Part shown: positions 43,527 through 50,730 of the stretch, piece by piece | Numbering within the stretch: position 1 is the first letter of the stretch | How the letters are laid out: every line of letters starts with the position of its first letter | Source: Candidatus Fervidifonticultor secundus | GTDB taxonomy: Bacteria > Sysuimicrobiota > Sysuimicrobiia > Sysuimicrobiales > Humicultoraceae | Direction: 5' to 3' | NCBI GenBank assembly: GCA_031459385.1 | Contig: JAVKIP010000008.1 | Span: 32,001-96,000, forward strand | DNA: 64,000 nt | The notes under the pieces: generated by a model | Told to the model about the DNA's origin: nothing | The model's database searches: none | Seen by the model: the letters and a program-made list of their open reading frames with translations, nothing else | Translations under genes and position numbers: made by a program

Positions 43527-45878
43527 CTACCTGGCCTCGGTCGCCCTCACTGCCCGGCGCGGTCGTTCCGCGTCCTGGAGGATCGTGCTGCGTCGGCTCA
43601 GGACCACCGCGCCGACGACGAGCGCGAGCGCGACGACGACCACGGCAAGACGCGCGAGACCGGGGAGGGGACGGATGACGACCGGCGCGATGAGGATTGC
43701 CACCAGGTTCATGACCTTGATCATCGGGTTCAGCGCCGGGCCTGCCGTGTCTTTGAGTGGATCTCCGACAGTATCCCCGATGACCCCGGCCTTGTGGGCA
43801 TCACTGCCCTTGCCCCCCAGGTAGCCATCCTCGATCTTCTTCTTGGCGTTATCCCAGGCGCCGCCGGTATTGGCCATGAAGACGGCCAGCAGCTGTGCGG
43901 TGAGGATGGCCCCGGCCAGGTAGGCCCCCAGGGCGCCGGCACCCAGGCCGAAGCCGACGAAGATGGGTACGCCGATCGCGATGATCCCGGGACCGAGTAA
44001 CTCCCGCTGGGCCGCCCGGGTCACGATGTCCACGCTGCGGGAGTAGTCCGGGCGCGCCTTCCCCTCCAGCAGCCCGGGGATCTCCCGGAACTGCCGGCGT
44101 ACCTCCTCCACGACCAGGAACGCGGACCGGCCGACGGCCCGGATGAGGAACGCGGAGACGAGGAACGGCACGGCGCCGCCGATCAGCAGGCCGATGAAGA
44201 CCAGCGGCAGGTTCACCTGGATGCCGACGTGGGACAGCAGGTCCCCGGCGCGATCGGCGCTGGCCGCTTGCAGCTCCTGCACCGTGACGAAGAGGCGCGC
44301 TTCGTCGATGAACGACCGAAACAGCGCGATCGCGGCGACCACCGCGGTGGCGATCGCGAACCCCTTGGTGAGCGCCTTGGTCGTGTTGCCGATCTGGTCC
44401 AGCCGCGCCACGATGCGGCCGGCCAGTGAGCCGCCCCGCTCGACGCCCGACATCTCGAAGATGCCGTTGGCGTTGTCCACGATCGGGCCGAAGGTGTCTT
44501 CTGCCAGGATGAACCCTGTCGTCGTGAGCAAGCCGAGGCCGGCCAGCGCGACGCCATAGGCCGCCAGCGCCACGCTGCCGCCGAAGATCGTGAACGACGC
44601 CACCAGCGTGACGGCGATGGCCAGGATGGCCCACACGGTGCTCTCCAGCCCGGCGCCCAACCCGGTGAGCAGCATCGTCGCTGGTCCGGTCTTGGTCGAG
44701 TAGGCGATCTCCGTCACCGGGCCGCGATCCGGATGGGTGAACAGCTCCGTCAACCAGCCGATGCCCAGGGCGAGGAGGATGCCGGTCAGCGTGGCGAGGA
44801 AGAAGCGGAAGTCCGGCATGCCGGTCTGGGGGTCCTTCAGGTAGAAGACGTTCACCAGCCCGAAGCCGGCCACGGAGAGGCCCGCCGCCGTCCAGAAGCC
44901 GACGTTGATGGGCCGCATCGGGTCACCGAGTTCCTCATCCCGGGCGCGCACCACCCAGGTCCCGATGAGCGAGCCGAAGACCCCGATGGCGCGCACCAGC
45001 AGCGGGTAGATGATCAGCTTCAGGGCGAAGCCGCCGGCGGCGGCGATTCCCCCATAGCGGGCGACGAAGGCCGGGTCGAGCAGCGTGGCGGCGCCGAGGA
45101 TGATCGCCGCCACCAGCGTCACCTCGTAGCTCTCGAAGACATCGGCGGCCATGCCGGCGCAGTCGCCGACGTTGTCGCCCACGTTGTCCGCGATGACGGC
45201 GGCGTTGCGCGGGTCGTCTTCGGGAATTCCGACCTCCACCTTGCCCACCAGGTCGGCGCCGACGTCCGCCGCCTTGGTGTAGATACCGCCGCCGACGCGC
45301 ATGAACGCCGCGACGAGCGAGCCGCCGAAGCCGAAACCCACCAGCACGCGCATCGCGTTCTCGCGGAACAGCATGAACATGATCGTCGCTCCCAGCAGGC
45401 CCAGCCCCACGGTGAACATCCCCGAGATCGTGCCCGCCTGGAAGGCGATCTGCAGGGCCTCGCGGTAGCTGCGCCGGGCAGCGTTCGCCACCCGAACGTT
45501 GCCGTGCACGGCCGAGGTCATCCCCACGTACCCGGCCCCGTAGCTGGCGACGCAGCCCAGCAGGAACGCCGCAGCGATACCAAGGGCCAGCTGCGGGCGG
45601 TCAGTGTAGATCGGCCGGTACAGCACGTAGAGTCCCACGGTCACGGCGATGATGAACAGCAGCATCGTCCGCAGCTGTCGGGTGAGGTAGGCCATCGCGC
45701 CTTCCTGGATCGCACTGGCGACTGCGACCATCGACGCCGGACCCGGGTCGCGGCTGAGTACCCGTCGCCGCAGGTACCAGCCGTATCCCAGCGCGAGGAT
45801 ACTGCTGGCCAGCACCAGCCAGAGCAGGAGCGTTTCCTGGGCGCCAAACTCAGGGAGTGTGATCGTCGCCTCGCTCAT
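43527..45878 (-). CDS. hppA: Membrane-bound ion-translocating pyrophosphatase, K+-independent signature
   Basis: Motifs GGGIYTKAADVGADLVGKVE, DNVGDNVGD, GNTTKA (Lys form), GGAWDNAKK and GDTVGDPLKDTAGP. RBS GGAGG lies before ATG 45878. Confidence 0.95.
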   Translation of the reverse strand: MSEATITLPEFGAQETLLLWLVLASSILALGYGWYLRRRVLSRDPGPASMVAVASAIQEGAMAYLTRQLRTMLLFIIAVTVGLYVLYRPIYTDRPQLALGIAAAFLLGCVASYGAGYVGMTSAVHGNVRVANAARRSYREALQIAFQAGTISGMFTVGLGLLGATIMFMLFRENAMRVLVGFGFGGSLVAAFMRVGGGIYTKAADVGADLVGKVEVGIPEDDPRNAAVIADNVGDNVGDCAGMAADVFESYEVTLVAAIILGAATLLDPAFVARYGGIAAAGGFALKLIIYPLLVRAIGVFGSLIGTWVVRARDEELGDPMRPINVGFWTAAGLSVAGFGLVNVFYLKDPQTGMPDFRFFLATLTGILLALGIGWLTELFTHPDRGPVTEIAYSTKTGPATMLLTGLGAGLESTVWAILAIAVTLVASFTIFGGSVALAAYGVALAGLGLLTTTGFILAEDTFGPIVDNANGIFEMSGVERGGSLAGRIVARLDQIGNTTKALTKGFAIATAVVAAIALFRSFIDEARLFVTVQELQAASADRAGDLLSHVGIQVNLPLVFIGLLIGGAVPFLVSAFLIRAVGRSAFLVVEEVRRQFREIPGLLEGKARPDYSRSVDIVTRAAQRELLGPGIIAIGVPIFVGFGLGAGALGAYLAGAILTAQLLAVFMANTGGAWDNAKKKIEDGYLGGKGSDAHKAGVIGDTVGDPLKDTAGPALNPMIKVMNLVAILIAPVVIRPLPGLARLAVVVVALALVVGAVVLSRRSTILQDAERPRRAVRATEAR

Positions 45879-46486
45879 CGTGCCTCCACGCTGTCGCCGG
45901 GGCCGCGCGCCCGACGTGGCCTGCCAGGCATAGGTGCCCCGTGCGGCCCACGGTACCCTGAACCGGCGCACAGGACAAGGGCCAGGCGGCGCCGGGTGCG
46001 CGACATGCCGGAGACCGGGGGCTGGTCAAGACCGCCCCGGCGCTGCCGATCAGGAGCAACGCCGGGAGGGAGCGGGGTGGCCCAGCGGAACACGCGGCAT
46101 CCTGACTGGCGCTGCCGGCAGATCGCGCGCCCGCGCCGAGGTGAAAGGGTCGGGGGCGGGAACCGGATCGACGTCCTCCGGCACACCGTCGGCCCGGAGG
46201 GGACACCCCCGACCCTGACCTGACCGGCCGCATTCTTCATGGAACCCAGCCCATCCCCCTGTGGAACCCGAGGGTTTCCAGCCCTGGTGGGGCGTATTCA
46301 GTAGAAGAAGGAGACGAGATTTCATGATCAATGAAGTTTTCAGAGATAAGGGGAGGAACTTCAGTGCCAGCGCAGAAGAAAGCCGCGACCCCCAGAGGTC
46401 GGACAGCCGCCGCGCCGCAGTCCTGCCGCCACGTCGCGCCATCTGGGGCCAGGGTACTAGGTCGGCAGACGAGGGAGGGGATCGTC

Positions 46487-46672
46487 GTGAGGACGCTCAT
46501 CGCACTGGTAGTGTCCGGGATCGTCCTGCTCGCGGGTGTGGCGGGTCCGGCCGTTCGGGTCGCCGGCCACGGCGACGGTGAGGTGCTGGGCGGTGCGATC
46601 GCCGGCCACGGCGACGGAGAGATCCTGGGCGGCGCGGTCGCCGGCCACGGGGACGGTGAGGTCCTGGGGTAG
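46487..46672 (+). CDS. 61-aa secreted propeptide: signal peptide plus three repeats of [VI]AGHGDGE[VI]LG; candidate signalling-peptide precursor
   Basis: [14 protein letters not shown] start, sequence MRTLIALVVSGIVLLAGVAGPAVR-VAGHGDGEVLGGA-IAGHGDGEILGGA-VAGHGDGEVLG*. Repeat differences are synonymous or V/I. Confidence 0.8.
   Translation: MRTLIALVVSGIVLLAGVAGPAVRVAGHGDGEVLGGAIAGHGDGEILGGAVAGHGDGEVLG
46559..46669 (+). repeat. Tandem 39-bp coding repeat, 3 copies (the last truncated by the stop)
   Basis: TCGCCGGCCACGG[CG]GACGG[TA]GAG[GA]T[GC]CTGGG recurs with a 39-nt period. Confidence 0.95.
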
Positions 46673-46709
46673 GCTGCGTGCCCATCGTTTCCAGGAGGCA
46701 CGGCGGAAT

Positions 46710-48002
46710 GTGACGCTCGGCCAGAAGATCCGTCAGGCGCGCAAGGCGCGCGGCATCACGCAGCGCCAGCTGGCAGGCGGGGATCTGTCGGAGAGCTTCA
46801 TCAGCATGCTGGAGCACGACAAGGTCCGGCCGTCGCTGGAGACGCTGCGCATCCTGGCTGCGCGCCTGGGCACGCCCCTGGCCGAACTGCTTGAGGCCGA
46901 GCCGGCCCCGCCGGCGCGCGTCGTGGCCGCACTCGGGCGAGGCTCGGCCCTCCTGCGACAGCACCAGTTCACGCCCGCCCTCGAGGCGTTCCAGGACGCC
47001 GAGCGCGTTATCGGCCCGGACGCGCCGCTCGAGTATCACTTCCGCATCCAGATCGGCCTCGGGCAGGCCCTGGTGGGCCTGCGGCAGTTCGACCTGGCGC
47101 GTCAGGCCCTCGACCGCGCGCGCCTCCTGGCCGACTCCCTGGGCAGACCCGACCTGACCGCCCGGGTCGCCAGCGCCACCGGGTTCCTCCACTTGCGGCT
47201 GCGCGACTTCTCGGCGGCGCGCGATGCGTTCACGCGGGCGCTGTCGGCGATTCGATCCGTCGGGCCGGTCGACGCCGAGTTCGAGGGGGCGGTGCTGACC
47301 AACCTGGGGCGCACCTATTCCGAACTCGGGCTGCCGGCGCAAGCCCTCGACTGTTTCCAGGCGGCGCTGCAGCGGCTGGAGCCGCTGGGCGACGTGGGCG
47401 CGCTGGGCCTGCTGCACTTCAACCTGGGCGTGGCCCACGAGCGCCAGCGCGCGTTCGAGCAGGCCCGCGCGCACCTGGAACGCGCCGCGGTGCTCTTCGA
47501 AGCCCAGGAGAACCTCCGGCTCCTGGGCACGGTGAAGCGCAGCCTGGGCATCCTGCTCCTCAACCGCGGCCTGCCCGACCAGGGCGCGGAGGTGCTGGCC
47601 CAGAGTCTGGCCGTGGCGGAACGGCTGGCCGACGATGTGGGCCGCGCCCAGACGCTGACCGAGCTGGCGCGCGCATCGCTCATGCGCGGTGACCTGAAGA
47701 CGGCGCAGTCCCGCGCCGAGGAGGCGATCCGCCTGGCGGTGCGGCTCCAGGATCCCGCCGAGGCCGCGCGGGCTGAGGCGGTGATGGCCGTCGTGTGCTG
47801 GCGCGACGGCCGGCTGCCGGAGGCGGCCCGCCGGTTCGAGTACGCGCTCCAGCAGTTCGAGCGGCTGCACCTCGCCGGCGAGGTGGCCCGCACCAGCCGG
47901 GATTACGCGTTCCTGCTGATGGAGCGGGGAGAGGAGGCCGCCGCAGCGCGGCACTTCGCGCGAGCGTTCCGCGCGCAGGAGACGGCGGGCGTGGCGGACT
48001 GA
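46710..48002 (+). CDS. XRE-HTH + TPR-repeat regulator (NprR/PlcR-like architecture), 430 aa
   Basis: HTH TLGQKIRQARKARGITQRQLAG..LSESFISMLEHDKVRPS, followed by TPR helices (VLTNLGRTY, LHFNLGVAH). RBS AGGAGG. Confidence 0.85.
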   Translation: MTLGQKIRQARKARGITQRQLAGGDLSESFISMLEHDKVRPSLETLRILAARLGTPLAELLEAEPAPPARVVAALGRGSALLRQHQFTPALEAFQDAERVIGPDAPLEYHFRIQIGLGQALVGLRQFDLARQALDRARLLADSLGRPDLTARVASATGFLHLRLRDFSAARDAFTRALSAIRSVGPVDAEFEGAVLTNLGRTYSELGLPAQALDCFQAALQRLEPLGDVGALGLLHFNLGVAHERQRAFEQARAHLERAAVLFEAQENLRLLGTVKRSLGILLLNRGLPDQGAEVLAQSLAVAERLADDVGRAQTLTELARASLMRGDLKTAQSRAEEAIRLAVRLQDPAEAARAEAVMAVVCWRDGRLPEAARRFEYALQQFERLHLAGEVARTSRDYAFLLMERGEEAAAARHFARAFRAQETAGVAD

Positions 48003-48021
48003 CGGCGTCGGACGTCGCGCG

Positions 48022-49257
48022 TTACGCGATGGAGAGCAGCGCGCGGCCGGCCTGCGCGCGGCCGGCACGCGACGCTTCCAGGGCGATCTCGAAGTAGTGG
48101 GCCGCGCGCTCCTGCTCGCTGCGAGCCTGATAGTGGCGGCCCAGCGCATCCGCCGCCTCGGCCAGTTCCAGCGCGCAGTCTTCTGTTCCCAGCCGGGCCA
48201 CCGCGTCCTCCAGCAGGGGCAGCGCGTCGTCGGGTCGGCCCAGCGCGAGCAGCGCACGGCCCACGACCGCGGCCGCCCTGGCCGCTGCCTGGGCATCCCC
48301 GGCCGCCTGGGCCAGCGCGCGGGCGTGCTGCGCCGCCTCCAGCGCCGCCGGGGCGCTCCCGGCTGCGAGCTGCACGCGCCCCAGGTGAATCAGGGCTTCC
48401 ACCTCGGTCCGCCGGTCGCCGGCCTCCTGCGCGGTCACCCGGGCGCGCTCCAGCGCCTCCAGGGCTTCCTTCGTCGCCTCCTGCCCGTACGCGAGGAGGC
48501 CGAAGCCCAGCAGCGCCCGGCCCCGCAGGGCGCCCAGGCCATAGCGCGCGGCCAGGCGCGCCGCGGTCTCCAGCCGGCGACGCGCCTGCCTGACGTCACC
48601 CCGGTGCAGCAGGGCCATCGCGTGCGCGAGCAGCAGGCGCACGACGAGATCCGGCTGGCGGGCGGGACTGCGCAGGCGTCCCAGCGCATCGCGGAACGTC
48701 GCCGCAGCAGAGGCGGCGTCGCCACGGCGCATCGCCAGCAATCCCGCCACAAGGTCGCGCCGCGCGCGGACGCGCGCGCCCAGGCCACCCGCGAACGCAT
48801 CCAGTTCCTGCAGCAACGCGCGCGCCCGCTCCAGCTGGCCGCCATCGATCTCCAGTTCGGCCAGCGCCAGCACCGCGTCGGCCCGCTGCGGCGCCCAGTC
48901 ACCGGTCGCGGCCAGCTCGGCACTCAACTCCAGCGCGCGGCGGGCCAGGGCCACGTCCTGGCGGGCGGCGAGCTCGCGCGCCCACGCCACCAGACCTTCC
49001 AGTGCGGCCAGGTGCTGGTCCCGGGCGTCTCCGGCGATGGCCGAGAGCGAGGTGTGCAGCCGCCTGGTGAGGTACCGGAGCGTATCGAGGGACGGGTCGG
49101 CGAAGCCCCCCTCGAGCTGACTGATGAAACTCTTGGTATAGTCGGGGCCGGCCAGGTCAGACTGCGTCATGCCCAGCTCGCGCCGCCGCTGCCGGATGCG
49201 ACGGCCGATGGGCGCCTCGTCGGGCCGGACGTGTCGGCGCGAAGGATGCCGTCCCAT
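48022..49257 (-). CDS. Second XRE-HTH + TPR-repeat regulator, convergent with the first
   Basis: HTH IGRRIRQRRRELGMTQSDLAG..YTKSFISQLEGG..DPSLDTL, followed by Ala/Leu-rich TPR-like helices. Confidence 0.85.
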   Translation of the reverse strand: MGRHPSRRHVRPDEAPIGRRIRQRRRELGMTQSDLAGPDYTKSFISQLEGGFADPSLDTLRYLTRRLHTSLSAIAGDARDQHLAALEGLVAWARELAARQDVALARRALELSAELAATGDWAPQRADAVLALAELEIDGGQLERARALLQELDAFAGGLGARVRARRDLVAGLLAMRRGDAASAAATFRDALGRLRSPARQPDLVVRLLLAHAMALLHRGDVRQARRRLETAARLAARYGLGALRGRALLGFGLLAYGQEATKEALEALERARVTAQEAGDRRTEVEALIHLGRVQLAAGSAPAALEAAQHARALAQAAGDAQAAARAAAVVGRALLALGRPDDALPLLEDAVARLGTEDCALELAEAADALGRHYQARSEQERAAHYFEIALEASRAGRAQAGRALLSIA

Positions 49258-49379
49258 GGCGATCAGGGCCTCAGGTTGATTACACCACAACCGGACGCGC
49301 GGAGGAACCCGCGGTGGGGCGTGGCGCTGCGGCCTCACCGCCCGCACTGGCCACGAGGCCCCACGGGGCCCGCGTCGCC

Positions 49380-49409
49380 TTGACACTGTTGCGGCGCGCC
49401 TGCTATACG
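49380..49409 (+). promoter_or_regulatory. Sigma70-type promoter of hom-thrC-lysC
   Basis: TTGACA (49380-85), 18-bp spacer, then TGn-TATACG (49401-09). Confidence 0.6.
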
Positions 49410-49425
49410 GAGGGCATCATGCGCG

Positions 49426-50730
49426 GTGCGACCGACACCTGTGGCTTCGCCTGACGCCTGCCGCGTGGGCCTGCTCGGGCTTGGCACCGTCGGCAGCGCC
49501 GTGGCGCGCCTGCTGTCGGAGCGTGCCGACGAGCTGGCGCGGCAGGCCGGCGTGCCCATCGTGCTCCACCGCGTGGCGGTGGCGCACCCTGAGCGCGCCC
49601 GCGCCGTCTCGCTCCCGCCCGGGACGCTGGTCGGCGACGCGCGGGCCGTGGTGGCCGATCCCGCGGTGGCCGTGGTGGTCGAGGTGATGGGGGGCATCGA
49701 GCCCGCCCGCTCGTACCTGCTGGAGGCGCTGGCGGGCGGCAAGGCCGTGGTCACCGCCAACAAGCAGCTGATGTCCACGCGCGGCGACGAGCTGCACGCG
49801 GCCGCCGAAGCCGCCGGCGTCGACCTCTGCTTCGAGGCCAGCGTCGCGGGCGGCCTCCCCATCATCAAGACGATCCGCGAGGCGCTGGCAGGGAACCGGA
49901 TCCGCCAGCTGCTGGGAATCATCAATGGCACGACGAACTTCATCCTCACGCGGATGACGCGCGACGGCGTCTCGTTCGGCGAAGCCCTTGCCGACGCGCA
50001 GCAGCGGGGCTTCGCGGAGGCCGACCCGACGGACGACATCGACGGCCACGACGCGGCGGCGAAGCTGGCCATCCTGGCGTCTGTGGCCTTCGGCTGCCGG
50101 GTGACCAGCGCCGACGTCTACCGGGAAGGGATCGGCGAGGTCACCCCGCGCATGATCGCCTACAGCCGAGAGCTCGGCTACGTCGTGAAGCCGCTGGCCA
50201 TCGCGCGCAACGACGGCGGCGCCGTCGAAGTCCGCGTCCATCCTGCGCTCCTGCCGGCACACCACCCGCTGGCCGGCGTGGGCGACGAGGTGAACGCGGT
50301 GCTGATCGAGGCCGATCCGGTTGGCCTGCTCATGCTCGAAGGGCCGGGGGCCGGCGGCGGCCCCACGGCCAGCGCCGTGCTGGGCGACGTGGTGGATGTC
50401 GCGCGCAACCTGCGGGCCGGCGCGGCGGGGCGCCTGGGAGGCATGCCCCGGCGCAGGCTGCCGCTCCGCGAGGTCGCCGACACCGTGCTTCCGTACTGCG
50501 TCGCCATGGAGGTGGCCGACCGTCCGGGAGTCTTCGCGCGCGTCGCGGCCGCGTTCGGCGACGAGCAGGTCAGCATCGCGTCCATCGTGCAGAAGAGCCG
50601 GGGTGTGACCGCCGATGTCGTGTTGGTGACCCACGAGGCGCCGGAGGCCGCCATGCGGCGCGTGATAGGCCGCCTGCGCCAGCTGGACGTCGTGCGGTCG
50701 GTACACGCCGCGCTCCGCATCGCTGCCTAG
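49426..50730 (+). CDS. hom: Homoserine dehydrogenase with C-terminal ACT domain
   Basis: Motifs GLGTVG, VVTANK, FEASVAGGLP, GIINGTTNFIL, GFAEADP and DRPGV. The start could be 49441. Confidence 0.95.
   Translation: MRPTPVASPDACRVGLLGLGTVGSAVARLLSERADELARQAGVPIVLHRVAVAHPERARAVSLPPGTLVGDARAVVADPAVAVVVEVMGGIEPARSYLLEALAGGKAVVTANKQLMSTRGDELHAAAEAAGVDLCFEASVAGGLPIIKTIREALAGNRIRQLLGIINGTTNFILTRMTRDGVSFGEALADAQQRGFAEADPTDDIDGHDAAAKLAILASVAFGCRVTSADVYREGIGEVTPRMIAYSRELGYVVKPLAIARNDGGAVEVRVHPALLPAHHPLAGVGDEVNAVLIEADPVGLLMLEGPGAGGGPTASAVLGDVVDVARNLRAGAAGRLGGMPRRRLPLREVADTVLPYCVAMEVADRPGVFARVAAAFGDEQVSIASIVQKSRGVTADVVLVTHEAPEAAMRRVIGRLRQLDVVRSVHAALRIAA

Follow-up and report, generated by a model that had tools for sequence, protein, structure and literature searches.

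The stretch of DNA analyzed here (the window) comprises 64,000 nucleotides (nt) of Candidatus (Ca.) Fervidifonticultor secundus, contig JAVKIP010000008.1, and holds at positions 46487..49257 a gene for a small repeat-bearing propeptide, followed by the genes of two proteins, R1 and R2, that combine a helix-turn-helix (HTH) domain with tetratricopeptide-like repeats (TPR). These genes probably form an autoregulated peptide-signaling cassette, similar in operation to RRNPP systems known from Bacillota (NprR-NprX, PlcR-PapR, Rap-Phr). The basis of this reading consists of the genes themselves, their conserved linkage, selection on the peptide, the architecture of the receptor, and a conserved palindrome upstream of the operon. 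There is very strong support for a functional link between the exported repeat peptide, which is under selection, and an NprR-like regulator. The likeness to RRNPP systems lies in the way of working and may or may not reflect descent from the RRNPP family.

Propeptide gene, its repeats, and its linkage to the receptor

The propeptide gene (46487..46672, plus strand) begins with GTG, has 61 codons and a stop, and is preceded by a Shine–Dalgarno (SD) site, GAGGGAGGGG (46471..46480, plus strand), 6 nt before the start codon; the orthologs have a GGAGG-type site at the equivalent position. The leader, MRTLIALVVSGIVLLAGVAGPAVRVA (46487-46564, plus strand), combines a basic N-terminus with a hydrophobic stretch of 18 residues and has V and A at positions −3 and −1, respectively, the propeptide signal peptides being judged throughout by sequence rules or by eye. 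Three core copies follow on the same strand: GHGDGEVLG at 46565-46591 (propeptide residues 27-35), GHGDGEILG at 46604-46630 (residues 40-48), and again GHGDGEVLG at 46643-46669 (residues 53-61). The spacers between them are GAIA and GAVA, and an x-x-A sequence (RVA, AIA, AVA) precedes every GHGDGE[VI]LG unit. In the DNA, the repeat consists of three 33-nt copies at 39-nt spacing, copies 2 and 3 being 88% and 94% identical to the first. Copies 1 and 3 (locus L035) differ in three codons, all synonymous, while copy 2 carries V to I at two positions and one synonymous change. Thus, what the earlier note had read from the letters alone is present in the sequence: a 61-residue open reading frame (ORF) with a strong ribosome-binding site and a signal-like leader, three copies preceded by small-residue processing-like sites, and differences between the copies that are either silent or V/I exchanges.

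Public records already contain a called gene for exactly this product. Contigs of four DNA runs, all from one hot-spring study, span 46200-47000 with 1-3 single-letter differences and a constant repeat number; this agreement carries no information on expression or on polymorphism in copy number. The change 46560 T>G, seen in other samples of that study, gives V25G at position −2 of the proposed signal-peptidase site; the core copies are invariant in the other-sample contigs that carry this variant and the variant at 46327 (see below). Two other readings of the propeptide were rejected: as a lipoprotein, since the Cys found before the core in some orthologs (AALC/TA, the slash marking the boundary) is not conserved and R or other residues stand there elsewhere; and as an RTX-like calcium repeat, its register misfitting the motif GGxGxDxUx.

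The pairing of peptide and receptor genes was followed across a phylum set of 94 genomes, all of one order. We compiled 87 receptor loci, each with at least 250 nt of upstream DNA, from 30 loci of the phylum search, less two unpublished ones, 59 regions hand-chosen so as to represent every family and E-value tier, and a paralog on contig C2 of the genome to which the window belongs. The two unpublished genomes (G016, G024) enter the phylum tallies of receptor and LpxC genes but support no further claim, and their loci (L043, L044) are left out of the locus counts. A strict detector, built by us as was its control, called a peptide ORF of 30-130 residues when it found an SD-like site, a basic residue (K or R) close to the start, and 10 or more hydrophobic residues in a row. 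An exported small ORF upstream of the receptor was detected at 63/87 loci, 27 of which also had an exact internal repeat of at least five residues, as against 91 of 1480 (6.1%) random long ORFs (at least 350 residues) of the same genome, some of which are surely not genes; a repeat of at least six residues occurred in 0/1480 of these controls. In the species genomes, each of the 13 R1 relatives is immediately preceded, at a distance of 24-108 nt and on its own strand, by a small ORF with an SD site and a signal-like leader, and R1 orthologs of at least 44% identity have an upstream peptide ORF in 36 of 36 cases (35 by the strict detector and L049 by eye). Inspection by eye gave six further loci with a peptide gene (L049, L068, L070, L072, L073, L086); two strict matches look spurious (L099, L107), and at L062 and L076 the detector chose the wrong frame although the true peptide ORF is present. 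The peptide–receptor pairing is not chance. The arrangement given by the earlier note, with the peptide gene upstream of the receptor gene and a small ORF to be expected beside receptor homologs, thus extends far beyond the window: the peptide gene stands upstream at every locus where one was found. At the loci of family f3 (L050-L061), the upstream neighbor of the propeptide gene appears, from the alignment, to end in the manner of a cold-shock protein (...GQKGPQAT.V..). The neighbors in f3 differ from those elsewhere, which shows the internal order of the cassette to be kept while its neighbors change between families.

The conserved core is short; it immediately follows the leader, ends the propeptide, or stands at both places. 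In family f1, R1 orthologs carry 1-5 copies of GHGDGE[LVI]L, with the variants DHGGGEAF, GDGNIEVI, GHGDIEAL, and GVGDGDTTF; a 50%-identity subclade has one copy of G[RSHP][GP]D.D[SF][FY]G; family f3 has 1-3 copies of GHGG[GA]ELL, back to back without a spacer in two loci; and family f4 has from 2 to at least 8 copies of GDDNG[GP][GS] separated by VYG[VL]PPLVP[AQ]. The paralog clades carry GDVGPGDS, GDNGPDGNG, GQDG[PS]GQ, GDTWPGGG, GDSLPGGS, APELPGEN, GDDPPDSD, or ADG[ED]NG.GG, typically in two copies, one after the leader and one at the C-terminus. At six loci (L068, L070, L072, L073, L076, L086), 2 to at least 8 copies of GDDNG[GP][GS], or four of GQDGSGQ, alternate with long conserved spacers, VYG[VL]PPLVP[AQ] or SVDPLHHVNPLVPF; the ORF runs beyond the fetched DNA at L073 and L076, whose copy numbers are therefore a minimum. 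Of 59 distinct propeptides examined, 57 had a core that could be located, and in 52 of these Ala occupies position −1 of the first core; two of the exceptions are pattern artefacts. In a FastTree phylogeny of 86 receptors, the clades carry their own peptide classes (GHG[DG]GE.L, G.GD.D[SF][FY]G, GDDNG.., GD..PG.., ADG.NG.GG). At the level of the sequences, these comparisons show the cassettes to have duplicated and diverged as units.

Comparison of the repeat copies within single genes bears on selection. Over 26 multi-copy genes and 588 codon pairs, we counted 159 synonymous versus 47 non-synonymous differences, with zero non-synonymous differences in 18/26 genes. For instance, copies differ in 7 of 9 codons at L090 (all silent), 7 of 12 at L096, 6 of 9 at L094, and 5 of 7 at L093, and most changes of residue fall within spacers or the final unit. 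Silent divergence with constant residues rules out both a chance ORF and recent slippage; judged by these codons, the copies show selection on the amino-acid sequence of every one of them. The earlier note had suspected selection on the peptide and amplification by repeats: the former is borne out in the 26 genes, and repeat copies, from 1 to 8 or more, are general in the family. Its further suggestion, a division of the V and I variants between the two receptors, is not supported: copies within one orthologous gene are mostly identical (e.g., three to four of GHGDGELL), R2 also occurs beside single-type or single-copy peptides (L032, L033, L034, L036), and two same-genus genomes keep R2 and hom without an R1 ortholog.

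Proposed receptors and candidate operator

R1 (46710-48002, plus strand), which would be the regulator and the cytoplasmic receptor of the peptide, starts 37 nt past the propeptide stop and has 430 residues, with an XRE-type HTH (residues 1-60) and 18 helices forming nine TPR-like pairs; Pfam models HTH_3 (E 1.8e-11, residues 7-60) and TPR_12 (E 4.4e-30) match it, in agreement with the description and position in the earlier note. R2 (48022-49257, minus strand; 411 residues, HTH and TPR) converges on R1, the two stop codons lying 19 nt apart, and has no propeptide gene of its own. It matches TPR_12 (E 1.7e-10), and HTH_3 at 21.8 bits, slightly below the 23-bit cut-off. Default BLASTP gave no alignment of R1 with R2; each aligned with the other's orthologs in unfiltered tblastn at 28-30% identity over 379-418 residues. 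On these alignments, R2 is best described as a distant paralog of R1, the term being used loosely. The second, convergent paralog of the earlier note thus holds as to orientation and TPR content, and its kinship with R1 is remote. In relatives of the 70%-identity clade, R2 is likewise convergent and lies at most 3 kb downstream of R1.

An AlphaFold2 model of R1, built on a 13-row alignment (predicted local distance difference test score, pLDDT, 92.8), shows 18 helices beyond the five of the HTH and contains no signal peptide or membrane segment. Foldseek ranked the eukaryotic LGN/Pins first (E about 1e-11), and its top 50 included the Rap of pLS20, the PlcR-PapR-DNA complex, and RapI (TM 0.70/0.82), with PlcR 3u3w at rank 41. 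Upon superposition, R1 gave Z 32.8 with LGN (4wnd; 317 residues aligned, 22% identity), 32.4 with apo RapI (4i1a; 354 residues aligned, root-mean-square deviation (rmsd) 3.5), 29.4 with RapJ (4gyo), about 29 with phi3T Rap bound to pheromones, 28.9 with apo NprR (5dbk; 349/352 aligned, rmsd 3.7, R1 66-424 against chain residues 67-418, in register), and 25.6 with NprR-NprX (4gpk). Rap–peptide complexes match across the whole domain at Z 26-29. The R2 model (pLDDT 83.1) gave Z 26.5 with LGN, 24.7 with RapI, and 22.0 with NprR. As modeled, the architecture of R1 is that of NprR, an HTH followed by nine TPR pairs. The NprR-like receptor proposed in the earlier note agrees in architecture with the superpositions on RapI and NprR; LGN scores equally. 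Co-folding of the R1 TPR domain (62-430) with propeptide residues 27-61 (a 35-mer) scored 0.01 in both runs, made without controls, and weighs neither way.

A palindromic box, TTCATGATCAATGAA (TTCA-N7-TGAA; 46321..46335, no strand assigned), lies 166 nt before the propeptide start and is a candidate operator for an HTH dimer. The exact motif TTCA-N7-TGAA stands no more than 250 nt ahead of the peptide gene at 22/32 orthologous loci, versus 30 of 1760 random 250-nt windows from the same loci, and the other ten loci have near-matches in the alignment. The conserved palindrome fits autoregulation by an HTH dimer, with a promoter element or an RNA hairpin as alternatives. The change 46327 A>G, seen in other hot-spring samples, falls in the palindrome spacer and leaves the arms intact. 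In f1, the palindrome is followed by TGAAGTT ... GGAACTTCAG, as read from the alignment of 32 upstream regions. An inverted repeat in the window, CAATGAAGTT ... AACTTCAGTG (46329..46366, no strand assigned), overlaps the box, and GGAACTTCAG is conserved in relatives; TGAAGTT-N10-22-AACTTCA occurs once in the 3.3-Mb genome, at this place. This inverted repeat could represent another pair of operator half-sites, an element of the promoter, or a hairpin in the RNA.

Genome-wide, TTCA-N7-TGAA has six sites; no second intergenic site was identified in this genome, and the regulon search found no regulon. Of the sites elsewhere, one alone (C1:39045) has the TGAAGTT extension, and it falls within a long ORF read as a dehydrogenase. 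With about 500-600 nt, the exact figure varying with the start assumed for the PPase, the gap that separates the H+-PPase and peptide genes (45972-46486) is unusually long, and in relatives it also holds GTCGAA elements. Rfam gave no match at E up to 1 over 45800-49500; a sigma-70 promoter scan found 0 sites, and a single minus-strand terminator-like site was found, no more than in shuffled sequences.

Host, distribution, and relatives beyond the phylum

The host DNA has a GC content of 69-76%, and the 13 R1 relatives in the species genomes belong to metagenome-assembled genomes named Armatimonadota, Ca. Nitrosymbiomonas, or Ca. Fervidifonticultor, the last of which NCBI taxonomy places in Ca. 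Sysuimicrobiota (CSP1-3), an uncultured phylum of hot springs and soil. The GC-rich, non-Bacillota host suspected in the earlier note is confirmed by both. The DNA runs containing this stretch are hot-spring metagenomes of one study. The genome of the window has Omp85/BamA and LpxC genes, and LpxC is present in 86 of the 94 genomes of the phylum; together, these genes point to an outer membrane of the lipopolysaccharide (LPS) type. The same genome has 54 SBP_bac_5 (OppA/DppA-type) matches, a very large set for 3.3 Mb. Around the cassette lie genes for an H+-PPase (divergent, about 600 nt away), hom, a threonine-synthase-type PALP enzyme (thrC), an aspartokinase, and a sigma factor, a neighborhood that is not conserved between families.

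A receptor match at E up to 1e-15, ortholog or paralog, was found in 78/94 genomes, distributed as 31/33 in f1, 21/22 in f3, 23/23 in f4, and 0/12 in f5; f3 and f4 genomes usually have 2-5 matches. At the f4 loci L063-L066 and L069, receptors that have no recognizable peptide gene lie directly downstream of a tRNA-like stretch, and L066 has a leaderless ORF with GDDNQG, possibly a decayed propeptide gene. The genome of the window itself carries a second pair on contig C2 (about 84,900-86,491; L019), where a 43-residue signal-like ORF ending in ...VVQIA/DGDMGGGL lies 166 nt upstream of an HTH-TPR paralog of 29-30% identity; a third paralog (C12:15268-16524) has no peptide ORF within 600 nt. In the same-genus genomes G001 and G002 (locus L170), R2 (78% identity) and hom (87%) are kept, and the R1 paralogs present have an identity of 28-31% only. 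DNA similarity of L170 to the window begins exactly at the R2 stop (window 48016), and in G001 a dioxygenase-like gene and HpaB occupy the place of the H+-PPase, peptide, and R1 genes. Thus, the peptide–R1 pair can be lost or gained, and R2 can stand alone.

Outside the phylum, a profile search of Chloroflexota gave matches at E up to 1e-40 in 82/201 genomes, many of them full-length. Among the 29 loci examined (30 were returned; R1 matched nothing in L154), eight have upstream a signal-like ORF in which an Ala is followed by a C-terminal tail of 7-8 residues, such as A/DGTVACCV or A/DNIPGGW, and one of these has repeats. The full-length Chloroflexota matches often contain one in-frame stop, TAG, TAA, or TGA (e.g., G104, G117, G141, G153, G201, G273), which may point to two genes, a broken gene, or read-through. 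In viral contigs, the search gave two matches, both limited to the HTH, and no full-length relative. Of two distant representatives compared with the species genomes, P0050 had one partial match and P0058 none. Look-alikes in the ESM Atlas include HTH-TPR clusters in Dormiibacterota and Actinomycetota, which are leads only.

Passages of PMC10075063, PMC9765709, and PMC12700828 describe the RRNPP family for Bacillota/Firmicutes and mobile elements, unlike the host phylum here, which is outside Bacillota. Among the literature matches listed, none mentions RRNPP together with Armatimonadota or with the other phyla searched, and those since 2018 for RRNPP-like, NprR-like, or PlcR-like systems concern Firmicutes or the rumen only; the word 'quorum' is absent from two CSP1-3 genome papers. 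In summary, the literature searches made found no published description of this cassette. On a broader and more tentative view, signaling of the RRNPP type may be old and widespread in non-Bacillota Terrabacteria, near-universal in three CSP1-3 families with 2-5 orthogonal pairs per genome, with the same gene order in Chloroflexota and with unmodified pheromones passing an outer membrane.

Proposed mechanism, rival explanations, and known systems

In the proposed cycle, of which we infer export, the cleavage sites, import, binding, and regulatory output, the Sec pathway would carry the 61-residue pre-propeptide out of the cytoplasm, and signal peptidase would cleave it behind VRVA. Cleavage behind each of the two spacers, AIA and AVA, would then free up to three acidic peptides of 8-9 residues, GHGDGE(V/I)L(G), to be re-imported by one of the many Opp/Dpp-type permeases. 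Inside the cell, the peptide may bind the concave face of the nine-TPR domain of R1, which would alter the binding of R1 to the TTCA-N7-TGAA box upstream of the peptide–R1 operon and to further targets. R2, which has no signal gene to itself, is possibly an additional listener.

Several observations weigh against this interpretation. None of the R1 matches in Pfam or NCBIfam at E up to 1 is to an RRNPP-specific model, and profile searches of the PDB reached PlcR through the HTH alone (2qfc, E 6e-8, residues 3-88) and Rap105 weakly (E 3e-4). Since LGN superposes as well as RapI does, the fold alone proves neither RRNPP kinship nor peptide sensing. At about 20 loci, mostly of f4 and certain paralog clades, no peptide gene is present in the 700 nt or so to either side, and the two same-genus genomes described above lack the peptide–R1 pair. 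The tracking of receptor clades by peptide classes would be expected from shared descent alone and is no proof of coevolution. Between receptors that share 44-100% identity, the core motif varies unusually little, in contrast to the pherotypes of Bacillota, which diverge fast. Finally, a released peptide would have to cross the outer membrane, and we know of no described RRNPP system that does so.

The same observations bear on what else the cassette could be. It is unlikely that the peptide is a secreted or periplasmic effector that binds metal through His, Asp, and Glu or acts on other cells, with R1 controlling only its production and sensing something else. A core rich in Gly, Asp, Glu, and His, kept over large receptor distances, would suit such a role, as would the hindrance that the outer membrane poses to release and re-entry, and peptide binding by R1 is something that we infer. 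However, most paralogous cores lack His (GDVGPGDS, GDNGPDGNG, APELPGEN), which makes a shared metal site unlikely, and 8-10 residues is very short for an effector. Through many duplications, moreover, every receptor paralog has kept immediately upstream a peptide gene that differs from the others, which would make little sense if the receptor did not read the peptide, and no transporter, immunity, or modifying gene lies near the cassette. A rather improbable variant is a private signal, in which the peptide would be confined to the periplasm, taken straight back, and report secretion or the activity of a periplasmic protease or permease instead of cell density. The LPS-type diderm envelope and the very many periplasmic peptide-binding proteins encoded in the genome agree with it; all of its steps but release are common to cell-to-cell signaling, and nothing here separates the two.

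Multi-copy core peptides with conserved spacers, such as the eight or more GDDNGGS units with the spacer VYGVPPLVPA, are also a feature of multi-core precursors of ribosomally synthesized and post-translationally modified peptides (RiPPs), and NCBIfam gave one weak match to a RiPP-associated TPR protein (E 1.3e-8, far under the cut-off). It nevertheless seems highly improbable that the small gene encodes such a precursor and the TPR protein its regulator or recognition protein: no maturase, cyclase, radical SAM enzyme, protease, or exporter adjoins the cassette, the neighborhood varies between families, the leader is a Sec-type signal peptide and not a RiPP leader, and the cores of the phylum have no conserved Cys, Ser, or Thr. 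There is next to no chance that the ORF is a random reading frame or a mere regulatory upstream ORF. High-GC DNA is full of spurious ORFs, and the listed runs containing this DNA include no RNA run; against this stand the silent-site divergence between copies with identical amino acids, the leader and SD site conserved in all orthologs, and a control rate of 6.1% that came without repeats.

A conserved and diversified family of such cassettes in an uncultured LPS-diderm phylum would widen the picture of peptide signaling through TPR receptors beyond Bacillota, phages, and plasmids, and would give a handle on social behavior in a phylum known only from metagenomes. Propeptides with up to eight or more copies would be a bacterial parallel to multi-copy pro-pheromones. 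The system is testable without culture of the host, comprising short, linear, exactly predicted peptides, a soluble receptor of 430 residues, and a candidate operator. The family would also supply an outgroup for rooting the RRNPPA tree, which a passage of PMC12700828 names as an open question.

Among known systems, the eukaryotic LGN/Pins is the best structural match to the TPR part of R1 and, according to the titles of the structure entries, binds extended peptides in its groove; it differs from R1 in having no HTH and no signaling-peptide partner. Rap proteins, which act on response regulators, lack an HTH, and phr lies downstream of rap. The Rap-Phr systems resemble the R1 cassette in the TPR domain, which superposes on that of RapI (Z 32.4), RapJ (29.4), and phi3T Rap (about 29). 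They also resemble it in placing several pheromone copies in one propeptide, as PMC11343458 describes for the tandemly duplicated pheromones of phages phi3T and phi105; extracellular cleavage releases the copies in Rap-Phr and would do so here. The difference is that copies here reach eight or more, with long conserved spacers.

In the Bacillus cereus group, PlcR-PapR comprises an HTH-TPR regulator with a palindromic box upstream of its own operon, and the C-terminus of a propeptide that is exported yields the active peptide. The regulator with its palindromic box is paralleled by R1, whose best RRNPP sequence match is the HTH of PlcR; however, PlcR has five TPRs in about 285 residues versus nine in the 430 residues of R1, the box here is TTCA-N7-TGAA, and the order of peptide and receptor genes is opposite. 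The NprR-NprX system of the Bacillus cereus group is like the cassette in having an N-terminal XRE-type HTH and nine TPR-like helix pairs in about 425 residues, together with an adjoining gene for a small exported propeptide. Sequence identity between NprR and R1 is 11-12% in the superposition, and no NprR-specific family was matched. Whereas nprX lies downstream of nprR, the peptide gene here is upstream of the receptor gene, apparently co-transcribed with it, and multi-copy, in a host of another phylum with an LPS outer membrane.

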